A DNA stretch of 24,330 nucleotides, taken from UHGV virus genome UHGV-0242784. One strand, written 5' to 3'. The notes below the pieces were generated by a model. The model did not search any database. It had not been told where the DNA came from and was given only the letters and a program-made list of their open reading frames with translations. Shown piece by piece: positions 2,854 through 23,835 of the stretch (positions are counted from its first letter, which is position 1; every line of letters begins with the position of its first letter). The stretch comes from a virus. A program made the position numbers and the translations under genes.

Positions 2854-3875
<1,022 letters not shown>

Positions 3876-3980
3876 GGATATTTATCAGGATTTATCGGTT
3901 TCTGAACCCTGGATATGTTTATCTGTCCCGGCCTGTTGAATCAGGCGGGGAAAAGGTAAAGACAATCAAGAGGATTATTT

Positions 3981-4253
3981 ATGGACAATAACACCATTTC
4001 TCTACAGGAGTTGCTCGACTGCATTTCAAAGCTTCGGGATGATGTAAATGCCCTCACTGTTGCATTTTCATATTTGGCCTTATCAATTCCCAGAGAACAA
4101 ATGCAACCAACACTGGCATCGCTCCTGCTTGAATCACGCAACCCCAAATGGTCCCAGGAACAACAAAATTCTTTCAAGTGGCTGGCGGCATTACTGGAAG
4201 AAAAATATGCTGGTAAAATTACCATTTCGGTGGAGTCTTCAGAGAATCAGTAA
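3981..4253 (+). CDS. Hypothetical 90-aa protein, antisense-oriented inside the lysis cassette
   Basis: ORF with good SD (AAGAGGA 8 nt upstream) and protein-like composition; the overlapping minus-strand 94-aa ORF looks compositionally implausible. Confidence 0.4.
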   Translation: MDNNTISLQELLDCISKLRDDVNALTVAFSYLALSIPREQMQPTLASLLLESRNPKWSQEQQNSFKWLAALLEEKYAGKITISVESSENQ

Positions 4254-4563
4254 TTCTTCCTGGTAGCTTTCCTTTGTAGGTTATCCACACATTCTGCGCC
4301 TCTAAAATTACGGGGCGCTTTTCCGGCGACTGCTCATCCCCTTCACATAACCCGGCTGCAACTTCCAGGAAGACCTGTCTGATGCTCCTTCTGGCTGCTG
4401 CCTCATAAAACTCCAGCGCGGCACCTTCAACACGGTCCAGCGAGATGTCCAGGTCAAAAATTTCACCGTCAAAGCGTTTTTTGTCCCTTAATGCTACAGT
4501 TACCGCAACTTTATTCTCAAAATTGCGGATCCCTTTCACAATCAGTTCATAGTTTTGTGTCAT
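4219..4563 (-). CDS. Hypothetical protein between holin and endolysin (114 aa from internal Met)
   Basis: ORF track (121 aa); start moved to the first Met downstream of the holin stop; same strand as the lysis genes. Confidence 0.45.
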   Translation of the reverse strand: MTQNYELIVKGIRNFENKVAVTVALRDKKRFDGEIFDLDISLDRVEGAALEFYEAAARRSIRQVFLEVAAGLCEGDEQSPEKRPVILEAQNVWITYKGKLPGRITDSLKTPPKW

Positions 4564-4567
4564 TGAA

Positions 4568-4783
4568 TTACTCTCCCCGTGCAACCTTACGCTTGTCTTC
4601 TTTAATCTTGAAATAAAGGTTTGTCAGGTACGTCAGCAAGCCAAATACCAGACTACCCAGCACACCGATTGCAGCCCACTGTGACGGAGTTACTTTATCG
4701 AGTAACTGCAATGCCCAGAAACCAGCATTACCAGCCGATGTGCCATAGGCGATACCTGTTGTTAACTTATCCATTGATTTCAT
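4568..4783 (-). CDS. Class II holin / pinholin, phage-21 S-type, with dual-start motif MKSM
   Basis: [28 protein letters not shown]...[22 protein letters not shown] matches my recollection of S21; two TM segments; SD GAGGA upstream. Confidence 0.85.
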
Positions 4784-6686: not shown

Positions 6687-7439
6687 TTATCTCGTCACCT
6701 TTCTCAATTGTGCTTCAGCGTAAGATTCCTCCTGCCAGCACTTTGTAACCAGTTTATCAATGACATTTGCATATCCTTTATACCACTGATAATCACTCAG
6801 GTCCGGTACCAGCTTCTGGACATGATGCCGCGCCAGTGTGGTTGGTAAACGACTAAACCGTTTTCCATTGCAACGCCCACAAATCTTATAAACAGGTGTG
6901 CCATGAAGCCGGGTCCTTTTTTCATCCAGGACAATACCTTTACCCTTACACCCTCTGCACGCTGTGCTGACTTCTCCCTTACCATGGCAATGCTGACATA
7001 GTTCCTTCACCCACTCTTCTTTGATAACAGATTCCCCGCTTCTGGAGTGTTTCACCACTTCGCGCAATACATTATGAAATCCAGTACCAGCACAATGCTC
7101 ACAACGAGCCTTACTTGCCGCAGACCTGGAATAATCAGCAAAGGCAAAATTCACAAGGTAAGGAATAATCTGTAGCCGGGTTTCTTCACTCAATTTATTC
7201 AATGTCGGGTTATCCAGTGCCATCGCGTAATTGAGCAGACCTTCAATCGCAAACTGAGGATCCTGAACACCAACTTTTGCCAGGAATAAGGCAAACCCAA
7301 GCGGTGCTTTCGACTGCACCATCCCCTGCGCAGCCATCACATCCGTAATCGTTAAACCACCAGAGCCTGTCGCCGGTGCGTCATCACTCAATTTTGGAGA
7401 TTTTGGGGAGTAATATTTTGGTAAGGCTTCAAGGTTCAT
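6687..7439 (-). CDS. Late-gene antiterminator Q (phage-82/Qin QuuQ type, 250 aa)
   Basis: 250 aa with multiple CxxC zinc-binding pairs (CEHCAGTG, CQHCHGKG, CRGCKGKG, CGRCNGK); position directly upstream of the PR'-like promoter. Confidence 0.8.
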   Translation of the reverse strand: MNLEALPKYYSPKSPKLSDDAPATGSGGLTITDVMAAQGMVQSKAPLGFALFLAKVGVQDPQFAIEGLLNYAMALDNPTLNKLSEETRLQIIPYLVNFAFADYSRSAASKARCEHCAGTGFHNVLREVVKHSRSGESVIKEEWVKELCQHCHGKGEVSTACRGCKGKGIVLDEKRTRLHGTPVYKICGRCNGKRFSRLPTTLARHHVQKLVPDLSDYQWYKGYANVIDKLVTKCWQEESYAEAQLRKVTR

Positions 7440-7452
7440 GCTCGTTCTCCAC

Positions 7453-8448
7453 TTACGCCAGTACGCCTATTGCCAGCGCACGATCGATAAAACGAAATAT
7501 CAGCTCCAGCTGGGAGCCATACTTCTCTTCAAATGCCACGGTATCCGCATGCAGCTCGTCGTGATGCTTTCTGCACAAAGGCAACACAAAAAGGTCATGC
7601 GCTTTTGTACCCATTCCCCCCTGACCGTGGCCTATCAGGTGGTGGGGATCATCAGCAGGTTTTCCACAACATGCGCACGGCTGCGTCTTAACCCAGCGCG
7701 TGTACTTTTCATTAACCCAGCGGTGACGTTTTGGGCGTAACATAAAAGACTCCGGCGACTCCGGATCCACTTTCAGCGCCAGCACCTTTTTCGCCTTATC
7801 CTGGATGATGCTGGTGGCAGGAACCGAAGGCACAAGGTCACTTTCCCGGGTAACAGACGGCACAACAGGCTTCGGTAATCTCAGTGCCTTACGGGCTGCA
7901 CTTTCCGGTAAGGCATCCGCCAGATCATTACGAATCAGCCACCAGCACAGTTCCGGCATTGTCACAACATGACAGTCATCAAAACCGAGATCCCGACGCA
8001 CAACAGACAACACCCAGCGGGCACAGTTATCCGTTGCCATTGATTCCAGCCGTTCCGTGAACTGATCGCGCAGCTGGTTATCGCAGTGCCAGCACAGACG
8101 GATTGCGCCCGGAGCGTGTCGCATTGTTGTCATGTTCTCGCTGTGCCAGTCGGAATGAGGCCACTGGCAGCCTTTTTCACGAAGTAACCAGCTTTCAAGA
8201 CATTCCACGCCACCAGCACGACGGATCACTGCCTCATTGCGGAACACGGCCCGAACGGCAGGATCATCCGCCAGCGGTTGTGATGCCGCCGGAACGACAC
8301 CACTGGCGAAAGATGAATAACGTTCCGGCTCAGGCTCCAGCAGGACACGCCCCTGCATAAACAAGGGCATCAGCTCTGAACCTGGTCTGAACAATACGAT
8401 CCCCATACGCGGGGCAATTTCAGGGGTCAGTAGTGCTCTCACGGTCAC
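7453..8448 (-). CDS. DUF968/YdfU-like protein with C-terminal Cys/His cluster (possible HNH-like zinc module)
   Basis: 331 aa; C-terminal CACCGKPADDPHHLIGHGQGG...CRKHHDELH; position next to Q as in the Qin prophage (recalled). Confidence 0.65.
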   Translation of the reverse strand: MTVRALLTPEIAPRMGIVLFRPGSELMPLFMQGRVLLEPEPERYSSFASGVVPAASQPLADDPAVRAVFRNEAVIRRAGGVECLESWLLREKGCQWPHSDWHSENMTTMRHAPGAIRLCWHCDNQLRDQFTERLESMATDNCARWVLSVVRRDLGFDDCHVVTMPELCWWLIRNDLADALPESAARKALRLPKPVVPSVTRESDLVPSVPATSIIQDKAKKVLALKVDPESPESFMLRPKRHRWVNEKYTRWVKTQPCACCGKPADDPHHLIGHGQGGMGTKAHDLFVLPLCRKHHDELHADTVAFEEKYGSQLELIFRFIDRALAIGVLA

Positions 8449-8449
8449 C

Positions 8450-9277
8450 TCAATGAACGGTATCGAGCAGCTTTAACAGCTCAGGGAATCGGGATTCGAA
8501 GAAATGCGGCTGCGTCTCGCGCGGATTTGCAGGACTGGTGATGTTCTTGCCGAACATGCAGCCTTTCGCGGTCAGCGACCAGAATTTTTTGATGTTGTTA
8601 ATCGCGGTACGACTGTATCGTTCGCGTTGTTCAACGATCCCCAGCTTCGCCATCTGGTGATATGCCTGATTAGCCGTCAGGCGGATACCATACTGCTTCA
8701 GCAGTGCACTCAGCGACAGCGTAGGGCGGCTTGAACCATCTGGCGCATCAGCAGGTGCATCAATGGCATAGATCGGCATAAGTTCAGGAAGACCAGCTAC
8801 CTTTGATAATTTCTGGTATGCACCAAGTTTCGAGGAGTTTGACAGATTTAGAGTCTTCGCTGCTGATTCAAGCAGAATGACCCCGGATTTAATTTTGTCG
8901 GATGTGGTTTCTTCTGGTGATGAATTATGAAGCGCATCAAAAGTACGTATCACTTTTAAGCTGAATGCCGGGCTGATCCACATTGCATATGCATAGACCA
9001 GCTCTTTACAGACATACGTCCCACCATTGCGCCCCTGAATGGTGATGACAGGAATACTACGGGAATCTCCCGTAGTTTCTTCTTCCAATAATTCCACAAG
9101 AGCCTTCGTTTCAGGACGACGCATAAACTCGTGAACTTCCAGCGAACGGGAGGAGCGATTCTCACCAGCGGCAAGAAGAGCAGCTTTCTGAAGGTCGTTA
9201 AGACAGTAGTTAGATTCGAAGTACTGGCGCACAGAAACGCCATCAATTACAAGCAACTGATTCATTGGTTTCTCCAC
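8450..9277 (-). CDS. KilA-N domain protein (antirepressor/DNA-binding type)
   Basis: N-terminal region with ...GTYVCKELVYAYAMWISPAFSLKV... resembles the KilA-N signature; true start may be the internal Met MNQLLV. Confidence 0.65.
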   Translation of the reverse strand: MEKPMNQLLVIDGVSVRQYFESNYCLNDLQKAALLAAGENRSSRSLEVHEFMRRPETKALVELLEEETTGDSRSIPVITIQGRNGGTYVCKELVYAYAMWISPAFSLKVIRTFDALHNSSPEETTSDKIKSGVILLESAAKTLNLSNSSKLGAYQKLSKVAGLPELMPIYAIDAPADAPDGSSRPTLSLSALLKQYGIRLTANQAYHQMAKLGIVEQRERYSRTAINNIKKFWSLTAKGCMFGKNITSPANPRETQPHFFESRFPELLKLLDTVH

Positions 9278-9427
9278 AAATTTTTATCCACGAGCGGGAC
9301 TGCACTCCCTTTTCGTTGATGCAGGATGAACTTACTGCGATTTTTAATAGTTATCAAGGATACACTGTTCATAAATACAGTATCTTTAACGAGGTAATAC
9401 CCAAATTTAGGGTGTTGCTCAATTCCG

Positions 9428-9823
9428 TTACCGAGTTGCTAATTTGCAACTCGCTTTTTCGTACTTACTGATAGTGATCTCGACCTTCCCCTCCGGGATA
9501 ACCGGTCCCCACTCCACCAGCATTCTTTTCACCTGACTGTCGTCTTCCCACACCCCCGCGTGGGTCAGGGCGTCAAACAGCGCCTTGTTATAGTTGTCCA
9601 GATCGCGGATCCGGTTATCCGGAGGAAACAACACGATCTCCACTGAAGCAGGTGCCGACGTTGGTTTCGGCAGACGACGTAACTGCTCAACTATTGCTGC
9701 ACACGCCGCGCTCTGGAATTTTCGCCCCGCCGCGCTTATCAGGCTCTTACCAGCAAACGCCCCTTTGTTGGGGTGTCGCCAGTACGTGTTCACGCTGGGC
9801 GGAAAAGGCAGGATCAGCTTCAT
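9428..9823 (-). CDS. rusA: RusA-family Holliday-junction resolvase
   Basis: PFPPSVNTYW ... DLDNYNKALFDALTHAGVWEDDSQV: conserved RusA acidic catalytic motifs (DxDN) recognisable. Confidence 0.8.
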   Translation of the reverse strand: MKLILPFPPSVNTYWRHPNKGAFAGKSLISAAGRKFQSAACAAIVEQLRRLPKPTSAPASVEIVLFPPDNRIRDLDNYNKALFDALTHAGVWEDDSQVKRMLVEWGPVIPEGKVEITISKYEKASCKLATR

Positions 9824-10146
9824 ACTTTCAGGCCTCTCTCATGTAACCAATGGGCTGCACGCAGCCTGGCGTTTTCCTCACCGGCAAGCAGTGAGCGGAT
9901 AATCCCGACCGCCTCGCTGTCGTCGTCCTTCGCCACGGTATGAAGCGTGATCCCCCGGGCCACACCACGCTTTATCGTGATGACGCCTTTTTTCTCCAGT
10001 GCGCGAAGATGCTCCACCGCTGCATTCACTGAACGGTATCCCAGCATGGTTGCCACCTCCAGATTGGTTGGCGGGAAGCCACGTTCTTTCTGATAAGAAA
10101 TCAGCATATCCAGCACCTGCTGCTGGCATTGAGTTAACGTCGTCAT
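9820..10146 (-). CDS. LexA-type winged-helix DNA-binding domain protein lacking the S24 peptidase domain (108 aa)
   Basis: LTQCQQQVLDMLISYQKERGFPPTNLEVATMLGYRSVNAAVEHLRALEKKGVITIKRGVARGI parallels the LexA N-terminal domain; no Ser/Lys peptidase region follows. Confidence 0.55.
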   Translation of the reverse strand: MTTLTQCQQQVLDMLISYQKERGFPPTNLEVATMLGYRSVNAAVEHLRALEKKGVITIKRGVARGITLHTVAKDDDSEAVGIIRSLLAGEENARLRAAHWLHERGLKV

Positions 10147-10796
10147 GCCGCCATCTCCCTGACCAGTTTTTCCGCCTGCTGGCGAACCTGCGCCAGAAAC
10201 GCCTCACCACATGCCTCAAGTTCATCGCGCCCGATGTAGCTGATTGCCGGTCCCTTCCAGGTCTTGTCGAAAACAGCAATAGCACCAGCGAAGAAAGCGC
10301 CTGTCGGCACCTGCTTCTCATCTTTCGGGATAAACCAGGCAGGCAGTTCAAAACCAATACGCCCGCGAATAAAAGCAATATGATCTGCATCTTCCGGCCA
10401 CCACACTTCGCTGGTGGCAGCTTTGATCAGGAAAACATAGCGCCCGCCTTTATCACGCATGGCACTGGCATGTTTCATGATGTAACGCATGCCGGTGATG
10501 TATTGCCCCTCATGCTGACTGGCGCGGCTGTATGGGGGATTACCAAAGGCAGCACCTTTAAGCTCCGCAAGACGTTCTGACCAGTCATGCGCCAGCGCGT
10601 TGTCTTCCGCCGTGTAATACGCGGCACATTTGGCGTTATCACCATCGGTAAACAGATCCAGAACAAACGGGCCAAACAGGGTGTTAATCCCCCAGAAAAT
10701 GTTATCCGGCGTGCGCCACTGATCGCCCACTTCCTTCAGTTCATGGGCTGGTTTGTTCCGCAGTTCCACCAGTGCCTGACAATATTTATTACTCAT
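10143..10796 (-). CDS. Phage Dam-family N6-adenine DNA methyltransferase
   Basis: Motif GNPPYS (NPPY catalytic motif IV); start placed at Met12, which overlaps the upstream stop as TAATG; the ORF could instead start at 10829. Confidence 0.75.
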   Translation of the reverse strand: MSNKYCQALVELRNKPAHELKEVGDQWRTPDNIFWGINTLFGPFVLDLFTDGDNAKCAAYYTAEDNALAHDWSERLAELKGAAFGNPPYSRASQHEGQYITGMRYIMKHASAMRDKGGRYVFLIKAATSEVWWPEDADHIAFIRGRIGFELPAWFIPKDEKQVPTGAFFAGAIAVFDKTWKGPAISYIGRDELEACGEAFLAQVRQQAEKLVREMAA

Positions 10797-11290
10797 TAAG
10801 CCCCCACGTAATTCCCTGACAGATACCACTCTTCACCCGATGCAGCGCGCTTGCTGCTTTTCCGTAAGCACCGCTCACGACGCGCCAGAAAATTGTTTCG
10901 TTCTGGCTGGGAGTGGCTTTCACGGAATGCCGCCATCCACACGGTTGCAGCACGACGAAATAAGCCCCTGGACTCCAGTTCTTCAGCCTGGCGGGTCAGG
11001 CACAAAATCACCCGGGGATCGTTAGTGCCGACATAGAAATTGCGCACAGGTCTGGTTTCACGAACTGGTTGTGGTTCCGGCTCCTGCGCTCTCTCAGTCA
11101 GGCGCGGGAAATGTCTGCGTGTATCTCCTTCACAACGGTGAGCCACACGCCCGCTCTGACGTAACTTGCTTGCTGACTGCAGTACGCGCTGCCGTGAGTA
11201 ACCTGCAAAAGCATCCGCAATGTCTCCGGAAGTACACCCCGGATGGGCTTCAATGAATTTCTGAACGTCATTCAAAAGACTCATGCTCAC
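10796..11290 (-). CDS. Hypothetical protein (164 aa), basic C-terminal half
   Basis: ORF coupled to flanking genes by ATGA/TAATG overlaps; family not recognised. Confidence 0.55.
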   Translation of the reverse strand: MSMSLLNDVQKFIEAHPGCTSGDIADAFAGYSRQRVLQSASKLRQSGRVAHRCEGDTRRHFPRLTERAQEPEPQPVRETRPVRNFYVGTNDPRVILCLTRQAEELESRGLFRRAATVWMAAFRESHSQPERNNFLARRERCLRKSSKRAASGEEWYLSGNYVGA

Positions 11291-12228
11291 CCCCTGAATC
11301 CTGCCGGGATCTGGCTGTAGTCCACATTGTCGTAACTGGCTTTGAAGTACGGGTCTTCGCGTTTTTCTGTGTACGTGCTGATGGACGGCGATAAGCGCAG
11401 GGAAAGCTCATCCCATTTTTCCCGCAGCTTCGACGGGCTGAGCACGTTACGGCACCAGAACGGATCGCGGCTGATGCGGCTGTACATCTCGCAGATTTGT
11501 TTGTGAGTACGACCATCCTGCACACACATCAGGCGAATTTCGTTTGCCCAGGCTGTCCAGTTCGGTTCTTTGGGACGAACCACCTCGCCGTCACATTCGG
11601 CGGCCTGCTCGTACAGGGCGATGATTTTTTTCCAGAGCCACTGTGCGCAGGTCAAATCATCCTGCGTTCCCCACTGGCACTTTTTAGGGCTGAATACAAC
11701 CGCATCAGGATGGCGAGTTAAAAAATCCTGTTCAGCCGTCTGCGTGTCCGGTTGCGAAACGTCCGGACGAGAAGGTTTTTTATCTGACGGATCATATTTT
11801 GATTTTACTGACGGATCCCCGCCAGATTCTGACGGGTGAAAACCCGCTTTTTTGCCAGATTTCGACGCATCAAATTTTGACGGGTCAGATTTTGATGCGT
11901 CAGATTTTGACGGGTCAGAATCTGACAGTTGAGAAAATGCCGCGGCCTGAAGCTTCGCAACGTTAAGCTGATAAACATTCGACGCATTACGGTTACCCTG
12001 GCGACGCGCCTTACGCGTTAACCAGCCTTCTGCTTCCAGCCGTGCAATAGCCGTTCTGACGGTACTCATCCCCGCGCCAATCTGGCGGGCAATGGTTTCA
12101 ATCGATGGCCAGCACACACCTTCGTCATTACTGAAATCAGCCAGGCGGGCCATAATTGCCACACTGGATAATTTCATGCCTGACGCTGCGCAACCATCCC
12201 ATACATAGCCGGTTAATTTAGTGCTCAT
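11287..12228 (-). CDS. Replication initiation protein (N-terminal HTH; internal iteron-encoded SDPSK repeats)
   Basis: N-terminus (LSSVAIMARLADFSNDEGVCWPSIETIARQIGAGMSTVRTAIARLEAEGWL) resembles the HTH of phage/plasmid initiators; mid-protein repeat SDPSKSDASKSDPSKFDASKS is encoded by tandem DNA repeats. Confidence 0.75.
   Translation of the reverse strand: MSTKLTGYVWDGCAASGMKLSSVAIMARLADFSNDEGVCWPSIETIARQIGAGMSTVRTAIARLEAEGWLTRKARRQGNRNASNVYQLNVAKLQAAAFSQLSDSDPSKSDASKSDPSKFDASKSGKKAGFHPSESGGDPSVKSKYDPSDKKPSRPDVSQPDTQTAEQDFLTRHPDAVVFSPKKCQWGTQDDLTCAQWLWKKIIALYEQAAECDGEVVRPKEPNWTAWANEIRLMCVQDGRTHKQICEMYSRISRDPFWCRNVLSPSKLREKWDELSLRLSPSISTYTEKREDPYFKASYDNVDYSQIPAGFRG
11776..11930. repeat. Putative origin iterons: five tandem 15-bp repeats (consensus CAGATTTTGACGGGT, 11856-11930) plus related copies at 11784-11837, inside the replication gene
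   Basis: Direct reading: cagatttcgacgcat / caaattttgacgggt / cagattttgatgcgt / cagattttgacgggt / cagaatctgacagtt; arrangement analogous to ori-lambda inside gene O. Confidence 0.6.
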
Positions 12229-12576: not shown

Positions 12577-13244
12577 GCGTTAGTTTCTCCACAACCAGAA
12601 GCAATCGACGCCACGACGCCCGGAGCTGCACACTCGCGGGCGTCATTACTTTCTGAAACGCAAAAAATTTTGTAGACAAGTGCTGCATGCTCCTGCAGCT
12701 TCGAAATTGAGAGGTACAGCTCGTCGTTAATTGCTGTCTTCTCATGCGGTTCCACTACACCGTCTTCGATTGCCGAACGAATCTGTTTTGAATAACTGCC
12801 GATCTGTTCAATGACTTCCAGTAAACGCTGGTTAATATCGGCATTGTCCACATCCTCGACGTCAGGAAGAGACACAAAGACGCCATTTGCAGACTGCGCC
12901 ACAGCGTCAGCAATGAAGTGAGTGCCACCAGCACGTTGTAAAATCATTGCCCATCCCAGCGGGAAAATCTGATCGCCATCGGCACGAAGGCGGTTAAATA
13001 ATGCGTTCTCTGTTACATCCAGCCAGTCAGCTGCTTCAGCGTAACCACCCGGCAACGCTGCGATAGTTTTTCTGACAGCTTTCACGTACCACTCAGGCTG
13101 TTTTTCTACTTTCCAGTGATACTTACCCACGGTTAGCCTCATCGTTCTGTGGTTTCTGTTAATCGATTTATCCATTAGATTTTTCATAAAGCTCAGGTTT
13201 AAATGGCAACCGTCCGCAAGTTCTATATGCTGCTTCTGCTGCAC
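12573..13244 (-). CDS. YdaT-like protein in the cII position (start uncertain; ORF overlaps the cro-like gene by 77 nt if 13244 is used)
   Basis: ORF track; N-terminus [12 protein letters not shown] resembles my recollection of Rac YdaT; alternative starts at 13187, 13175 or 13142. Confidence 0.5.
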
Positions 13245-13368
13245 GTCCTTTTGGAATTAACTGGCCCGGACGGTTTCGCCACTGATAAACGGCCTCAGTT
13301 GTTATGCCGAAAAAAGCAGCAACTTTCTCAATACTGCCGAAGTAGCTTTCGATATCGTCAGTTGTCAT
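13168..13368 (-). CDS. Cro/YdaS-like HTH regulator (66 aa), divergent from cI
   Basis: HTH-like segment IEKVAAFFGITTEAVYQWRN; SD GGAGGG 5 nt upstream of the ATG; divergent arrangement with the repressor gene. Confidence 0.65.
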   Translation of the reverse strand: MTTDDIESYFGSIEKVAAFFGITTEAVYQWRNRPGQLIPKGRAAEAAYRTCGRLPFKPELYEKSNG

Positions 13369-13466: not shown

Positions 13467-14093
13467 ATGGAAACGGTTGGTCAGCGTATAAAAGCTCTGA
13501 GAAGGGTTACCAGAACGTCCCAGAAAGAATTGGGTAAATTTTGTGGGGTAAGTGACGTTGCTGTGGGGTACTGGGAAAAAGACATCAATGTCCCTGGCGG
13601 GGAAGCACTTTCGAAATTAGCGAAGTTCTTTAATACGTCAATAGATTACATTCTTTATGGTGCTGAGTTTGAAGGCAAACTAGTCACAAACATGCGCAGA
13701 GTTCCTGTAATTTCGTGGGTTCAGGCTGGGCAGTTTACTGAGTGCAGGGCAGCAGAAGTGTTTAGTGAAGTGGACAAGTGGGTAGATACATCTTTAAAGA
13801 TTGGTGATAACTCATTTGCATTAGAAGTTAAAGGCGACTCCATGACTAATCCTAATGGCCTCCCAACAATACCAGAAGGTGCAACAGTGATTGTAGATCC
13901 TGATGCAGAACCTCGTCATGGAAAAATAGTCATTGCTCGACTTGATGGAACGAACGAAGCTACAGTAAAAAAATTAGTCATCGATGGTCCTCAAAAGTTT
14001 TTAGTGCCATTAAATCCACGGTATCCCAACATCCCAATCAATGGTAATTGCCTGATCATTGGTGTAGTCAAAGGAGTTCAATACGAACTCTAG
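13467..14093 (+). CDS. cI: CI-type prophage repressor (HTH-XRE N-domain + S24 LexA-like autopeptidase C-domain)
   Basis: N-terminal HTH (QKELGKFCGVSDVAVGYWE), linker, C-terminal S24 domain with GDSM serine motif (EVKGDSMTNP) and a downstream Lys (KKLV); divergent from the cro-like gene. Confidence 0.9.
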   Translation: METVGQRIKALRRVTRTSQKELGKFCGVSDVAVGYWEKDINVPGGEALSKLAKFFNTSIDYILYGAEFEGKLVTNMRRVPVISWVQAGQFTECRAAEVFSEVDKWVDTSLKIGDNSFALEVKGDSMTNPNGLPTIPEGATVIVDPDAEPRHGKIVIARLDGTNEATVKKLVIDGPQKFLVPLNPRYPNIPINGNCLIIGVVKGVQYEL

Positions 14094-18601: not shown

Positions 18602-21600
18602 TCACACGCTGCGCCTTCGAGAATATTCATTTAATCGCTGATAACGAACATCTTGCTCCAGTTGTGGAGCAGCTTGAACAATTTGAAGCAAGCATTGCCC
18701 CAACTCTCGAGGCCCCCAGTGTTGTTCGGCAATCACGGCATTCAGCAGGGATAGAGCGTCCGCAGGATATCGGCTGCAAATATCTGATTCTAGCAAAAGG
18801 CGAACGTCGTAGCTAAGGTGTTCGAGCGGTTGCAGCCAGTCCTGCACCACTGCCAAAGCCGCCGGAAATTCACCTCGGGCAGCAATCACCATACGAGTCA
18901 ACGATTCGGATATGCGTGGGGTGGCCAAGTTGCGGGACTTTGGCCAAACCTGTTGCCAAAATGGCTGGACACGATTTTTCCAATACTCCTCGCGCTGATC
19001 GCCCGCACCTTCAAGTGCCTGGTATAACGCCTGCGCGGCTACCTCCAGACCTTCTTGTGGAAGAGCACTAATTGCCGTTCGGAACTCCTCCACGGTATAT
19101 CCCTCGGTAGGGCCCAGAGCTGCATAAGTCAGGAAAGTAGCGAATTGCTGCCGGTGCTCGCCAAGATCAGAATAGTGATTGGCGCTCTCCAAAAAATCTG
19201 ACTTGAAAGCTATCAGCAACGGTTCATACAGGCGTGGCGACCAGAGGAAGCCTTCCCACACAGCTTTTGCTTCGACGGGATTACTCCAAGCAAACAAGGG
19301 CAATAGATACTGTTCGGTCCAAGGTCGATCTACGCGAAAAAATGCGATCAGCCGCGACCCCAGCAACACCCGACCATGGCGGAATAGCTCTATCTGTACA
19401 TTACACAATTTGGTGAAAAGTGTTTTCAATTCAACAGGAAGCAAATCATTGTCATTCGGGTTCTGTTTGAACCATAGGGTGATCAGTGATTGCGTGACAT
19501 GCCCAATGGGATGATTGATCGCCGTAGAAACAGGATCATAGGTCTCAATTCCGTTTCGAATGGTGCTAGACTCTGGGCTTGTTTCTATCATCAGAACCCG
19601 ACGACAAAGGGCCAGTAGAATCTCCTCGTGGCAGAGGATGGTCTTCGAAGCCTCCTCCATCCACCAAGTGACAGCGTGGGAAATCTCCTGAAGTACTGCG
19701 TCAGGCATGTCAAGCACCAACGGTGCGGCGTACCGCCACGAACGCAAAATCATCCCTGGTTCAGCCCAAGTCTGCAGAGCTTCACGCCACCGACCAACAG
19801 GCCACACATCATCTTGTGATAGTTTACTTAACGCATACAGACTGTGAAAAAAGCGCGTACGGCAAACATCACTCCAAGTGTCCTCATAGAAAGGCAGTCT
19901 TTCTGGCATAGGCTTTGCGAGCCATTGCACTAATTCCTGCCACTTACGGGGCGCAATGTCGACATCTATATTCTCCTCGAAGCCTGGATCACCGGTTCCG
20001 CTCATCCAGTGAGAGAATTCATCACGCTCGTTGGTTGCCAGTTGCCATTTTGGGTATGCTGTGGATATTTCCGTCAAACGTGTAGCCGCAGACTCTCCCA
20101 AAACAAGGCCCGCTCCCCTGAGCTTCGCTAGACACAACCAGACGGAATGAGCCACCAAATAATGCCACCTGTCTGCTTCCAAATTATCCTCGTACATCTC
20201 GCGCGGAGGCCCTGCCAAGATAGCAGTTTCCAGACGCTCTTGTGCAATTCCTGTCAGATGTCGTCCCTGCAAAACAAACAGTCTGAATACCTCTCGCCCA
20301 GTATCCGTGGCCCACAACCACCATGAACCGTCCTCTAACAACCAATTAACCCACCGCTCAGGTGGTATGCAGTTGTCTTGGCTTGCGGCAAACAGTGCCA
20401 GACGTTTGAAGGTGGGATATGGCAACTCAAACCAATTCTGAGCAATGCGCGTGGCCTGATCGCTGTCTTTGGCTCGAACGGCTAACCATGAATCCCGAAG
20501 TAATTCAATCAGGCTCACCCAATCGCGGAACCCCCGGTTCTGCCAGTGCGGAGTGATGGACGGCAAATCCCAATGCGAGCGGTCGTGACGATCGTCGGAC
20601 TCTCCCAACTCCCGCAACAAGTCCAGTGCATCACGCAACAACTGCTGAAAATCTTCCAACAGGTATGGCAAGGACGATTTCCATGACTCGTCAGCAAGGT
20701 CGAACAGGGTTGAACGTACGTAATCAGCAGTCAGCACCAGCTCCCAATCCACCAATTGCTTGATTCGCAAGGGTTCATCAGTGCTGCTCGAATCGTCTTC
20801 ACTATAGCGAAACGGCCGCCTCAACATAACCTTGGGAGAAAGCAACTCGCGTAACTCCAAGCGCAATGTAGTCGTCAAGCCTTCATTCTTTAAGCGGTTT
20901 TGCCAACGATACAAATCCAGGTTCTGCAATGGCGATTTCACACGACCACTAAGCAGAAGCCGCCATAAAGTAGACATAGGTGGACCAGGAATAGCCAGGG
21001 GGGAATGCAAGAGAATTTCATCTAACTCAAAAGTCTTACGCTCCCGCATCAGTGCTGCTAAGCGATCTAGTTCGCTCTCAATCAGAAACATCCAACGGTC
21101 GTGTATTTGTCCGCCGCGTTCAGCAATCCATATGATCAACCTAGGGTCGCCCAGATAACGAACTAGCCAACGGGCTATATGGGACATTACGTCATCCCAT
21201 TTGCTAGCACTGACACATCCAGAAACCAGCGACATCTGCAGGGCCAGCTCATAGGGCGCAGGACGCTGAACCAGACTGAATCGGAGTTTCGGGTCAATTT
21301 CGACATGCGGAGATACACAAAAGCGTGGCAGATCGCTGTATTTAAATCGTTCGTCCGAGAAAGCTTTCAATAACCAATCCAGCGGCGGTGCAGGATTGAG
21401 TTCCGCAAAGCGTTTTGCTGGTAAACCTGATTTATCTGACAAGGCCCACAACATCCGACCAACGAAATCGTCCTGACGAGTGCTGTCCTGCGGGCGGGCC
21501 AGAGCATGTTTGACGACTATAGCCTCTTTGCCCTGTATACCATCTCGATAAGTATCTGCCCAAGCGTGCAACGTTTGATGCAGCACTGAATGATCAGTGG

Positions 21601-22429
21601 AGCCCGCCGGTACGGTGTAAAGGATAGGAGTGACCCCTTTGGCCTCCCACTCGATGGCTTTCCGGTGCTCCTGCCCCGGCTCACACTCCCCCAGTGCCCA
21701 TACTTGTGGTGTGACTTCACCGAGCCTCCGATCTGCTGCAAGCGCATCCATCATGTAGCGCAGTACCGGGTCGTTGATGCTGTAGCCAACGAAGCAGACC
21801 ACATAGTTACGAAATAACTCACTCACAAAGCGAGCTGCCCAACGCTCAGTGAGATAAGCCAAGCCAAAGTCACCGCTGGTAACAACCAGACGATTCAGGG
21901 CAGTATCATCCGCCTTTTCCGGTAACAGCCCATGCAGGTATACAAGTCCATCCCAGCGGCTGTTTTTTGGAATTGGCAGCATCGGCGCTACATAGGCCTG
22001 AAAAGCCTGGCCTGTACGTTTAGCTGCCACATGAAAGAGACGGTCAAAGTTGGTAGTGACCAATCGAAGGGCACCCTCGCGGCTACGGGCTAAACGTAAC
22101 AGCGCCGCCTGAGTATCAATAGCGCCCCTACGACGGAGCTTTGGCTTAAGGGCTTTTTCCAACGCGCGTCGGACGGCTATACGCTGCCCTGGTAAGCGCC
22201 GTTCCAGCAAATCTAATGTGCCGTCAAATTGCCCACGCTCGAAAACCTCACGCTCAATTTCTGAAAGTGTTGTTCCGTTCCTCTGGTAAATTAGTTCTAC
22301 CAACCCTTTGAAACCAGGTAAACCAGCAGGGTAGGAAATGCCTGCTCCACAGAAGAACACAACGCGCCCTTCCTCGTGCGCCTGCAAAAGCTCATCAGGA
22401 ATATCAGGGCCGTTGGTAATGAATTGCAT
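18602..22429 (-). CDS. Large SIR2-domain protein (1275 aa): N-terminal defence-type SIR2 NADase-like domain + ~1000-aa helical C-terminal region (DSR-like candidate)
   Basis: Uninterrupted 3.8-kb ORF with SD AGGAGG 7 nt upstream; SIR2 motifs in the first ~250 aa: VVFFCGAGIS, VTTNFDRLFH, VYLHGLL, VCFVGYSINDPVL; no Walker A (GxxxxGK[ST]) found by eye. Confidence 0.85.
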   Translation of the reverse strand: MQFITNGPDIPDELLQAHEEGRVVFFCGAGISYPAGLPGFKGLVELIYQRNGTTLSEIEREVFERGQFDGTLDLLERRLPGQRIAVRRALEKALKPKLRRRGAIDTQAALLRLARSREGALRLVTTNFDRLFHVAAKRTGQAFQAYVAPMLPIPKNSRWDGLVYLHGLLPEKADDTALNRLVVTSGDFGLAYLTERWAARFVSELFRNYVVCFVGYSINDPVLRYMMDALAADRRLGEVTPQVWALGECEPGQEHRKAIEWEAKGVTPILYTVPAGSTDHSVLHQTLHAWADTYRDGIQGKEAIVVKHALARPQDSTRQDDFVGRMLWALSDKSGLPAKRFAELNPAPPLDWLLKAFSDERFKYSDLPRFCVSPHVEIDPKLRFSLVQRPAPYELALQMSLVSGCVSASKWDDVMSHIARWLVRYLGDPRLIIWIAERGGQIHDRWMFLIESELDRLAALMRERKTFELDEILLHSPLAIPGPPMSTLWRLLLSGRVKSPLQNLDLYRWQNRLKNEGLTTTLRLELRELLSPKVMLRRPFRYSEDDSSSTDEPLRIKQLVDWELVLTADYVRSTLFDLADESWKSSLPYLLEDFQQLLRDALDLLRELGESDDRHDRSHWDLPSITPHWQNRGFRDWVSLIELLRDSWLAVRAKDSDQATRIAQNWFELPYPTFKRLALFAASQDNCIPPERWVNWLLEDGSWWLWATDTGREVFRLFVLQGRHLTGIAQERLETAILAGPPREMYEDNLEADRWHYLVAHSVWLCLAKLRGAGLVLGESAATRLTEISTAYPKWQLATNERDEFSHWMSGTGDPGFEENIDVDIAPRKWQELVQWLAKPMPERLPFYEDTWSDVCRTRFFHSLYALSKLSQDDVWPVGRWREALQTWAEPGMILRSWRYAAPLVLDMPDAVLQEISHAVTWWMEEASKTILCHEEILLALCRRVLMIETSPESSTIRNGIETYDPVSTAINHPIGHVTQSLITLWFKQNPNDNDLLPVELKTLFTKLCNVQIELFRHGRVLLGSRLIAFFRVDRPWTEQYLLPLFAWSNPVEAKAVWEGFLWSPRLYEPLLIAFKSDFLESANHYSDLGEHRQQFATFLTYAALGPTEGYTVEEFRTAISALPQEGLEVAAQALYQALEGAGDQREEYWKNRVQPFWQQVWPKSRNLATPRISESLTRMVIAARGEFPAALAVVQDWLQPLEHLSYDVRLLLESDICSRYPADALSLLNAVIAEQHWGPRELGQCLLQIVQAAPQLEQDVRYQRLNEYSRRRSV

Positions 22430-22611: not shown

Positions 22612-23835
22612 TCATTTCGAGCCTGAACGAGTACAAGTAACAATCGATTCAACTCTCTCCCACCATGCCTGGTAGGCTTTACGCTGTTCTTCTAGATAAT
22701 CACTCTTGTCATAAACTTGCCATACACCTGGCAGTTTATGACCGAGCATTATTTCAGCAATATGAGGCGCAGTAAGATCAGAAAAGTTTGTTCGTGCTGT
22801 TCGTCTCAAATCATGAAGAGACCAATGAGGAAATTGATACCCCAAACGCCGCCATGCGTACTGCATTAAATTGTAAGGTAGCGACTGCAATGATGTCCGA
22901 CCAACTGGTTCCCTGCTTCCTTCCTTAGTAAAAAGCATATCGGAACCGTTGTTCATAGAGATAACGTATTTTATAAGCTCTTCAACCGGTTCAATAATGG
23001 GCCGCTTTAGCGGTTCGCCTGTTATATCCCCTGTCTTATGTCGTTCTGGTGGTACAGTCCATATTTTATTAATGAAATCAAAATCGTCCACCTTGGCAGT
23101 AATTAGCTCTGAACTACGGCAACCAAAATGCAGCAATAGTTTAATGAAGGCCCGGTATTTAGGAACCATTCGAGAACCATCGATCGCAGCATAAAGGATT
23201 TTAATTTCATCATGTGTCAGAAACCGTTTCTTCTGACCTTTACGGATATCCATATCTTTACCCGTGATATCCGACAGCGGGCGAGTTTCAATGAGCTTTC
23301 TCTTATACGCCCAGACATGGGCCTGCTTTGCGTTAATTAGCAATCGGTCTGCTATTGCTGGAGTCTTAGTGCTAAGAGGCTCCAGGACTTCTAACCAATC
23401 ATGCAATGTAGCTGCATCGTGAGGGATATTCCCGATTTTAGAGAACAGGTGCAGCTCAAACGAGCGGAGTATCTGTTCAGAACCTTTTTTATTTTTTACA
23501 CAATATGCTTCATACCAAGCACGGATCACAGATTCTACCGTCATGGCTTCAGTAGCTTTACGTTTTTCTGCCAGCTTGACCAATCGTGGATTGCGGTTTG
23601 ACTCGAGTTCACCACGAAGACGGATAACTTCTTCTCTGGCCTCTTTTAGTCCAGTTGCCGGGTAAGTTCCGATATCAAGACGCTCACCTTTCCCCGCCCA
23701 CTGATAACGATATTGGAACACTACGCGACCTTTCGGTGATACTCTAACAGACAGACCATCACGATCGGATTTAACCAAAACCTTATCACGTTCCTTTCCA
23801 ACAACTGAACGCAACCACGCATCAGACAGCGCCAT
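22612..23835 (-). CDS. int: Tyrosine recombinase / integrase (P4-type, 407 aa)
   Basis: Catalytic residues in the expected order (R ... HDLRRT ... Y near the C-terminus); N-terminal arm-binding-like region; located at the prophage end next to the host junction. Confidence 0.9.
   Translation of the reverse strand: MALSDAWLRSVVGKERDKVLVKSDRDGLSVRVSPKGRVVFQYRYQWAGKGERLDIGTYPATGLKEAREEVIRLRGELESNRNPRLVKLAEKRKATEAMTVESVIRAWYEAYCVKNKKGSEQILRSFELHLFSKIGNIPHDAATLHDWLEVLEPLSTKTPAIADRLLINAKQAHVWAYKRKLIETRPLSDITGKDMDIRKGQKKRFLTHDEIKILYAAIDGSRMVPKYRAFIKLLLHFGCRSSELITAKVDDFDFINKIWTVPPERHKTGDITGEPLKRPIIEPVEELIKYVISMNNGSDMLFTKEGSREPVGRTSLQSLPYNLMQYAWRRLGYQFPHWSLHDLRRTARTNFSDLTAPHIAEIMLGHKLPGVWQVYDKSDYLEEQRKAYQAWWERVESIVTCTRSGSK

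Follow-up and report, generated by a model that had tools for sequence, protein, structure and literature searches.

A phage-encoded LexA DNA-binding domain without a peptidase, adjoining rusA in prophages of Enterobacterales: a possible RecA-insensitive surrogate of LexA

The virus genome UHGV-0242784, a stretch of 24,330 nucleotides referred to below at its full length as the window, is a lambdoid prophage. On its minus strand, directly upstream of the Holliday-junction resolvase gene rusA, it encodes a LexA-like protein of 108 amino acids (aa) that consists of the winged-helix DNA-binding domain of LexA and a C-terminal tail of two helices and is devoid of the S24 autopeptidase domain. We propose, with a probability of roughly 0.4, that this protein is a RecA-insensitive surrogate of LexA, with CTGT-type palindromes as its binding sites in the lytic phase. 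The family is already known to be abundant and annotated, and a peptidase-less phage LexA domain has a characterized precedent in the protein gp6 of phage GIL01. What is new is the family-wide loss of the glutamate Glu44, which is invariant in LexA, the conserved helical tail, and a fixed coupling to rusA rather than to the Dam-type methyltransferase gene on the other side. Mutagenesis, persistence and colicin release are governed by the SOS response, as is the induction of most temperate phages, Shiga-toxin (Stx) phages among them, and a LexA look-alike that withstands DNA damage could be a widespread and overlooked modulator of this response or of the competition among co-resident prophages. 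The elements in question are located in the window as follows, with the basis of each assignment in parentheses.

9820..10146 including the stop codon, minus strand: LexA-like gene, 108 aa (open reading frame, PF01726, phrog_362, dN/dS)
10155..10158, minus strand: GGAG Shine–Dalgarno sequence, 8 nucleotides 5' of the LexA-like ATG (sequence reading)
10143..10146, minus strand: ATGA overlap of the Dam stop codon (10145-10143) with the LexA-like start codon (10146-10144) (sequence reading)
9820..9823, minus strand: ATGA overlap of the LexA-like stop codon (9822-9820) with the rusA start codon (9823-9821) (sequence reading; recurs in diverged loci)
9940..10146, minus strand: LexA-type winged helix-turn-helix, residues 1-69 (structure model, Foldseek, ungapped LexA alignment)
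9991..10032, minus strand: recognition helix SVNAAVEHLRALEK, residues 39-52; S39, N41, A42 and E45 as in LexA, Glu44 replaced by Val (alignments)
9823..9939, minus strand: flexible linker and amphipathic two-helix hairpin, residues 70-108 (structure model, family alignments, hydrophobic pattern)
9363..9382, no strand: SOS box, TACTGTATTTATGAACAGTG as read on the minus strand with its flanks; the sole perfect CTGT-N8-ACAG in the window

The open reading frame (ORF) is initiated by ATG and comprises 108 codons. Its ratio of nonsynonymous to synonymous substitution (dN/dS), 0.11-0.32, indicates purifying selection, and the ORF is therefore a real gene whose protein is under constraint; that it is a decaying relic is excluded by this selection together with the conserved length and the conserved gene overlaps. 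The Pfam profile PF01726 (LexA_DNA_bind) is matched over its entire length by residues 1-65 (profile positions 1-65 of 65; E=1e-18; 67.3 bits, cutoff 23.7), and BLASTP aligns the protein with Escherichia coli LexA at 43% identity across residues 1-90 (E=1e-21), without gaps up to residue 69. The top sequence matches in the PDB are the entries 1lea, 1jhh and 3jso, all of them LexA, and the profile phrog_362 is covered completely (residues 1-108 on positions 1-106 of 106; E=1e-58). An AlphaFold2 (AF2) model built on a 27-sequence family alignment reached a predicted local distance difference test (pLDDT) score of 82.7, a single-sequence run having been uninformative (pLDDT 53). It contains helices at residues 6-22, 28-35 and 40-52, a two-stranded wing (56-58 and 66-68), a low-confidence linker and two further helices (74-87 and 93-103). 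In a Foldseek search the model superposed on the LexA DNA-binding domain (1lea, 3jso) with a root-mean-square deviation (rmsd) of 1.1-1.4 Å and approximately 50% identity over 67-70 residues. The original prediction, made from the DNA sequence alone, that this ORF parallels the N-terminal winged helix of LexA is thus borne out by profile and by modelled structure.

The peptidase half of LexA is absent, since the match to the NCBIfam lexA equivalog TIGR00498 is confined to profile positions 1-91 of 203 (69.7 bits, below the cutoff of 110.95). A Pfam profile search gave no Peptidase_S24 match for the 108-aa protein, and the gene leaves no room for such a domain downstream because its stop codon shares the ATGA with the rusA start. 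Ser119 and Lys156 of the LexA S24 autopeptidase and dimerization domain have no counterpart in a protein that ends at residue 108. The earlier claim that the S24 domain is missing and the protein non-cleavable holds accordingly: in a protein lacking the autopeptidase, RecA-stimulated self-cleavage is impossible. Nor is the Ala84-Gly85 self-cleavage site retained, the segment LLAGEE aligning only loosely with VAAGEP of LexA; in the family alignments its Gly is Asn in several relatives and is missing in distant ones. LLAGEE was also considered as a kept LexA cleavage site that would allow cleavage in trans, and this was rejected, the Gly being unconserved and the segment predicted to be helical. 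A VAA end marks the LexA fragment LexA(1-84) for ClpXP, and the window protein ends in ...GLKV, which is not of the VAA type. Because the S24 domain, a conserved Ala-Gly site and a VAA-type C-terminus are all lacking, activated RecA (RecA*) cannot inactivate the protein, and the ClpXP route should not apply.

Helix 3 of LexA is reported to contact DNA through Ser39, Asn41, Ala42, Glu44 and Glu45 (PMC3091678; PMC13416735); the exact role of Glu44 in this contact is taken here from secondary sources. The window protein, which has the same numbering as LexA, reads S-V-N-A-A-V-E-H in this helix, so that four of the five contact residues (S39, N41, A42 and E45) are identical and the fifth is V44. 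In the alignment with the LexA recognition helix, which the original prediction had named as a check, the agreement extends to four contacts and fails at Glu44. The PHROG 362 relatives, down to approximately 40% identity, show no exchange at S39 or N41 and for the most part retain A42 and E45, and the wing residues G54, I56, G61, R64, G65 and I66 are invariant or almost so. With four contacts of five and a conserved wing, binding of SOS-box-like sites by the window protein is plausible.

The Enterobacterales in which the family occurs have the CTGT-N8-ACAG box in common, and a single perfect core of this type is present in the 24 kb of the window, at 9365-9380, approximately 440 bp downstream of the LexA-like gene. 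About 0.3 perfect boxes would be expected by chance, and 25 of 100 shuffled windows contain at least one. We also used an SOS weight matrix, an approximate one built from E. coli boxes, which recovered, as a positive control, the boxes upstream of host lexA genes; the box at 9363-9382 scores 20.7 and is the sole site in the window at or above 15. It sits approximately 85 bp upstream of the start of the KilA-N gene, in the 150-bp gap that separates this gene from rusA, where a simple promoter scan gave no clear match to a sigma-70 promoter. By its placement it looks like a LexA-controlled promoter region, of the antirepressor or moron type, for the KilA-N gene, and it is a candidate target of host LexA and possibly of the LexA-like protein. 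In phages mEp460 and Stx2a_1447 the junction of rusA and the KilA-N gene measures only 19 bp and has no box, and the homologous gaps in three other lineages (L012, L017 and L021) contain a one-mismatch box at best. As a dedicated operator of the LexA-like protein the box at 9365-9380 is unsupported, given these box-less junctions and the rarity of its spacer, which occurs in 185 E. coli genomes, the gene itself being present in 2233. The SOS-box search thus turned up one strong site in the window, though not one that accompanies the gene constantly.

In the prophage stretches that carry the gene, SOS boxes are in excess: seven strong boxes were found in 119 kb against 0.4 expected, and the maximum in 200 shuffles was two. 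An unbiased search for inverted repeats in 12 lineages returned ACTGT-N8-ACAGT as the only palindrome that recurs at non-homologous (non-syntenic) positions, the remaining recurrent inverted repeats all lying inside homologous replication genes. No conserved palindrome occurs in a shared position near the LexA-like gene in the 12 lineages. In mEp460 (L096, JQ182728.1) there are four strong boxes, at 23255-23302, 31970-31989 and 41021-41040: a tandem pair 5' of a dinI-like gene, one within cI, and a last one where a DNA methylase gene begins that is situated between Q and the lysis genes. A separate element, GGTTGC-N3-GCAACC, is shared by the replication-protein genes of six diverged prophages, in which it takes up equivalent positions (4593 in L007, 1781 in L010, 3185 in L014, 1966 in L015 and L017, and 725 in L016). 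It may serve as an origin or iteron element, or be nothing more than conserved coding sequence.

The proposal of a RecA-insensitive LexA surrogate can be cast as a mechanism. The gene is located between the replication gene and Q and is for this reason predicted to be a delayed-early lytic gene at a position like that of the nin region of lambda, where the original prediction had also placed it. It would be transcribed with the delayed-early rightward operon, its translation presumably coupled to both flanking genes, and through this co-transcription the protein should be made during lytic growth. It may then dimerize via the C-terminal two-helix hairpin, possibly with additional wing–wing contacts on DNA, and the dimer would bind CTGT-type inverted repeats, either SOS boxes or a close variant. 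A LexA domain alone should be able to repress, since the LexA N-terminal fragment is reported to keep SOS-box binding (PMC10584840). Once host LexA has been destroyed, the protein would re-impose or retune the repression of LexA-controlled promoters; these could be the promoters of host SOS genes, of LexA-controlled morons (for instance the KilA-N gene of the window) and of LexA-controlled genes on co-resident prophages or colicin plasmids. The contact residues lend further support, because gp6, with a palindrome that is not an SOS site, has changed four of the five contacts and the window protein only one. The excess of strong SOS boxes in the gene-carrying prophage stretches, the recurrence of ACTGT-N8-ACAGT and the occurrence of all relatives found in Enterobacterales, whose members that serve as hosts share the box, likewise count in its favour.

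Several observations weigh against this proposal. All 76 full-length LexAs sampled (gamma- and beta-proteobacterial proteins of 197-230 aa, retrieved by a pattern independent of helix 3) read S-x-N-A-A-E-[E/D]-H, with Glu44 invariant, whereas the Glu44 position in every member of the short family is V, A, F, T, L or N and never acidic. Because an invariant LexA contact has been replaced throughout, the base specificity or the affinity of the family may have changed; the loss would be compatible with a shifted base preference and with a tuned affinity. The spacer that bears the box in the window accompanies fewer than 10% of the gene copies in E. coli (185 against 2233 genomes), six of the 12 lineages have no SOS box in the flanks examined, and no box is constant with the gene. 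The excess of boxes was measured with shuffles as the baseline, and could be explained by host LexA alone. Moreover, gp6 is a precedent for a phage LexA domain, approximately 44% identical to host LexA, that evolved a new site and the role of an activator. Finally, the spacing of the half-sites is not guaranteed to be that of the SOS box, since the dimerization module differs from that of LexA.

Much of this evidence bears on a different explanation, which we regard as possible but doubtful: that the protein is a phage-specific transcription factor with a diverged operator of its own, an activator or repressor that times phage genes and does not act on SOS boxes. The example of gp6, which binds GaCACAnnTGTGaC and activates a late promoter (PMC6182141), speaks for it, as does the loss throughout the family of an otherwise invariant glutamate. 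Many other short LexA-domain proteins of phages are present in BFVD, and the protein changes rapidly, as is frequent in regulators that change specificity. Between Citrobacter and the window the LexA-like protein is 64% identical, against 91% for RusA and 88% for the DUF968 protein, and in other lineages the values are 43-50% for the LexA-like protein and 64-82% for RusA; despite purifying selection it evolves faster than its neighbours. However, four of the five contacts are still those of LexA, whereas gp6 retains one, and a private operator finds no counterpart in a conserved palindrome at a shared position near the gene in the 12 lineages. The gp6 operator GaCACAnnTGTGaC is absent from the window with one mismatch allowed, BLASTP gives no alignment between the window protein and gp6, and Q is already present for the control of late genes. 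If only a private phage site is bound, the protein would be a phage regulator of the ordinary sort and would add a second case to that of gp6.

The 35-aa tail with its two helices (residues 74-87 and 93-103) is conserved throughout the PHROG 362 relatives and is absent from both LexA and gp6. It follows the pattern xEAxxxIRALLxG...ARxRAxxWLxxxG and is the fastest-diverging part of the protein: distant members are 22-42% identical in the tail and 46-55% identical in the DNA-binding domain, the helical pattern of the tail being kept. We infer that the hairpin is a dimerization module. Its persistence as a helical pattern under rapid sequence divergence, and the high overall rate of change, would also suit a protein whose main role lies in contacts made by the tail, for example one that modulates, or acts as a decoy for, some factor of the host or of a rival phage, with DNA binding secondary. 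This we consider improbable, since S39, N41, R64, G65 and I66 of the DNA-binding surface are invariant and no known anti-defence or defence family is matched, the only PADLOC match being marginal (E=4.7e-4). A number of representative proteins of 140-350 aa (P0129, P0136, P0150-P0155 and others) are matched by the query twice, at distinct places, and thus have two LexA DNA-binding domains in tandem on a single chain, which would be a covalent alternative to dimerization.

The remaining genes of the prophage considered here are arranged as follows.

22612..23835, minus strand: integrase
18602..22429, minus strand: Dsr1 SIR2 defence gene, 1275 aa (PADLOC Dsr1 model, full length, E=0)
13467..14093, plus strand: cI, with helix-turn-helix and S24 domains
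13168..13368, minus strand: cro
between cro and the O-like gene, minus strand: CII/CP76-like gene, then YmfM-like gene
11287..12228, minus strand: O-like replication gene
10796..11290, minus strand: PerC/YfdN-like gene, 164 aa (PF06069; phrog_1324 'transcriptional activator')
10143..10796, minus strand: Dam-type N6-adenine methyltransferase (TIGR01712, E=1.7e-76)
9428..9823, minus strand: rusA, Holliday-junction resolvase (PF05866; adjacency data)
8450..9265/9277, minus strand: KilA-N gene, separated from rusA by the 150-bp gap
7453..8448, minus strand: DUF968/HNH gene
6687..7439, minus strand: Q, followed by the lysis genes

The rightward early operon on the minus strand accordingly runs from cro through the CII-like, YmfM-like, O, PerC, Dam, LexA-like, rusA, KilA-N and DUF968 genes to Q. 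The true Dam start is the ATG at 10796, which overlaps the PerC stop as TAATG; for the KilA-N gene, the annotation of phage PhiR49_1 corresponds to the ATG at 9265 and the ORF list has the GTG at 9277. PerC homologues of enterohaemorrhagic E. coli prophages can activate the virulence genes of the locus of enterocyte effacement. The Dsr1 SIR2-domain protein is a known anti-phage defence gene product, here prophage cargo adjoining the integrase gene.

Of the genes around the LexA-like gene, only rusA is a constant neighbour. It is directly adjacent, with the ATGA overlap, in all 29 spread-sampled full-length E. coli matches, and lies downstream also in 12 diverged lineages, down to 43% identity; the overlap itself recurs in the Citrobacter, L007, L010, L012, L015 and L017 lineages, and two lineages have an intervening small ORF or an inserted gene in reverse orientation. 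The upstream neighbour varies: Dam in most E. coli copies, PerC/YfdN in five of the 29 sampled records; in other lineages the position is taken by an unrelated methylase of the C5 or D12 type or by a replication gene. Downstream of rusA, too, the gene varies and encodes either a KilA-N or a Rha/ANT protein. That Dam is an obligatory functional partner was rejected, since it is lacking from five of the 29 E. coli records as well as from the L007 and Citrobacter lineages. Translational linkage to both the methyltransferase and rusA, as first claimed, is thus matched by ATGA overlaps on both sides of the gene in the window, but the link to Dam is dispensable and only that to rusA is constant. In one distant relative (L011) an RNase toxin–immunity pair (RNAse_A_bac, CdiI_2) occupies 2863-4232 in divergent orientation, and a strong SOS box at 4560-4579 lies between this pair and a small ORF that precedes the LexA-like gene; the insertion may be an SOS-controlled bacteriocin-like one.

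The constancy of rusA raises the question of a role outside transcription, in which the protein would be a DNA-binding accessory of RusA, or of phage recombination or replication, that targets, loads or restrains the resolvase. The gene is always upstream of rusA in the 29 E. coli records and the 12 lineages, with the ATGA or one inserted gene between them, whereas Dam, PerC, KilA-N or Rha vary at the same loci. A comparable pairing is known from the lambda nin region, where the small DNA-binding protein NinH adjoins the Rap (NinG) nuclease, and it counts in favour of such a role. We nevertheless hold it to be quite unlikely. RusA is a homodimer that acts on its own, and rusA is present without a LexA-like gene in other lambdoid prophages, so RusA does not need the protein; the adjacency may merely reflect inheritance of the whole module; and the kept LexA-type base contacts favour sequence-specific over structure-specific binding.

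The 327-bp gene is present at no less than 90% identity in 2233 of 5426 complete E. coli genomes (approximately 41%), in up to four copies per genome, and in 51 deposited phage genomes including mEp460, PhiR49_1, Stx2a_1447, Stx2a_WGPS2 and many Stx2c phages. Among 1.84 billion representative proteins searched, 15 matched at E<=1e-30, followed by a tail of true LexAs. Full-length relatives have 104-116 aa, down to approximately 40% identity, on a common plan of LexA domain, linker and two-helix amphipathic tail. All relatives found lie in prophages of Enterobacterales (E. coli, Salmonella, Citrobacter, Hafnia, Atlantibacter, Kosakonia and Buttiauxella), and a genome scan for relatives returned mostly host lexA genes and four further family loci, again all from Enterobacterales. 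Phage annotations name the product 'LexA family protein', 'LexA DNA binding domain protein' or 'repressor, lexA family'; some copies are wrongly labelled 'SOS-response repressor and protease LexA', and the PHROG 362 name 'transcriptional repressor' is based on homology only. A survey of Stx phages lists the gene merely as the gene family pham 237 (PMC8136144), and our literature search for a functional study of the PHROG 362 LexA-like family found annotation-level mentions only. Some database entries (P0021, P0092, P0099 and P0120) have Dam and LexA domains in one polypeptide; rather than true fusions, these probably result from a frameshift or a sequencing error where the two genes meet at the ATGA.

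Returning to the RecA-insensitive surrogate, a narrower form of it takes the loss of Glu44 as a retuning, by which the protein would re-silence only a chosen subset of LexA-controlled promoters in lytic growth. In this specific form the idea is unlikely. If it is true, the candidate targets would be colicins, modules for suicide or lysis, and the antirepressors that rival prophages keep under LexA control; the burst of the producing phage would be protected and competitors would be suppressed. The coupling to rusA might link the shut-down of SOS to the hand-over from the SOS-regulated RuvAB to the phage resolvase. Since several Stx2 phages and approximately 41% of the complete E. coli genomes contain the gene, SOS-dependent traits and the induction of Shiga-toxin phages in polylysogens could be affected. 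The family also amounts to a natural experiment on DNA recognition by LexA, in which Glu44 has been lost and the other contacts kept.

Two known systems invite comparison. The first is E. coli LexA itself, in particular its fragment LexA(1-84). The winged-helix fold is shared (rmsd 1.1-1.4 Å, approximately 50% identity over 68 residues), as are S39, N41, A42, E45 and the wing, and like the fragment the window protein is a DNA-binding domain without the peptidase and dimerization domain. On its own, the N-terminal domain of LexA is reported to retain a degree of SOS-box binding and repression, and ClpXP must remove the fragment (PMC10584840). Unlike LexA, the window protein has no S24 domain and neither Ser119 nor Lys156, its Glu44 is replaced and a two-helix tail is added; it is moreover phage-encoded within a lytic operon and is not autoregulated by an upstream SOS box. 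The second is gp6 of the Betatectivirus GIL01, a truncated LexA homologue of 66 aa that binds GaCACAnnTGTGaC over the -35 element of the late promoter P3 and activates it (PMC6182141). Both gp6 and the window protein are phage-encoded LexA domains without a peptidase, approximately 43-44% identical to the host LexA domain and encoded in an early operon. However, gp6 is the domain only, whereas the window protein has a tail, and the recognition helix of gp6 reads S-H-K-T-A-H-R-Y, with four of the five contact positions changed against one in the window protein; the critical gp6 residue Lys38 corresponds to Asn41. The virus of gp6 is a Bacillus tectivirus and that of the window a lambdoid siphovirus of Enterobacterales. 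Closest of all are the PHROG 362 'LexA family proteins' of mEp460, SfV, cdtI and Stx2 phages, which constitute the same family, the window protein being 96-98% identical to those of mEp460 and Stx2a_1447.

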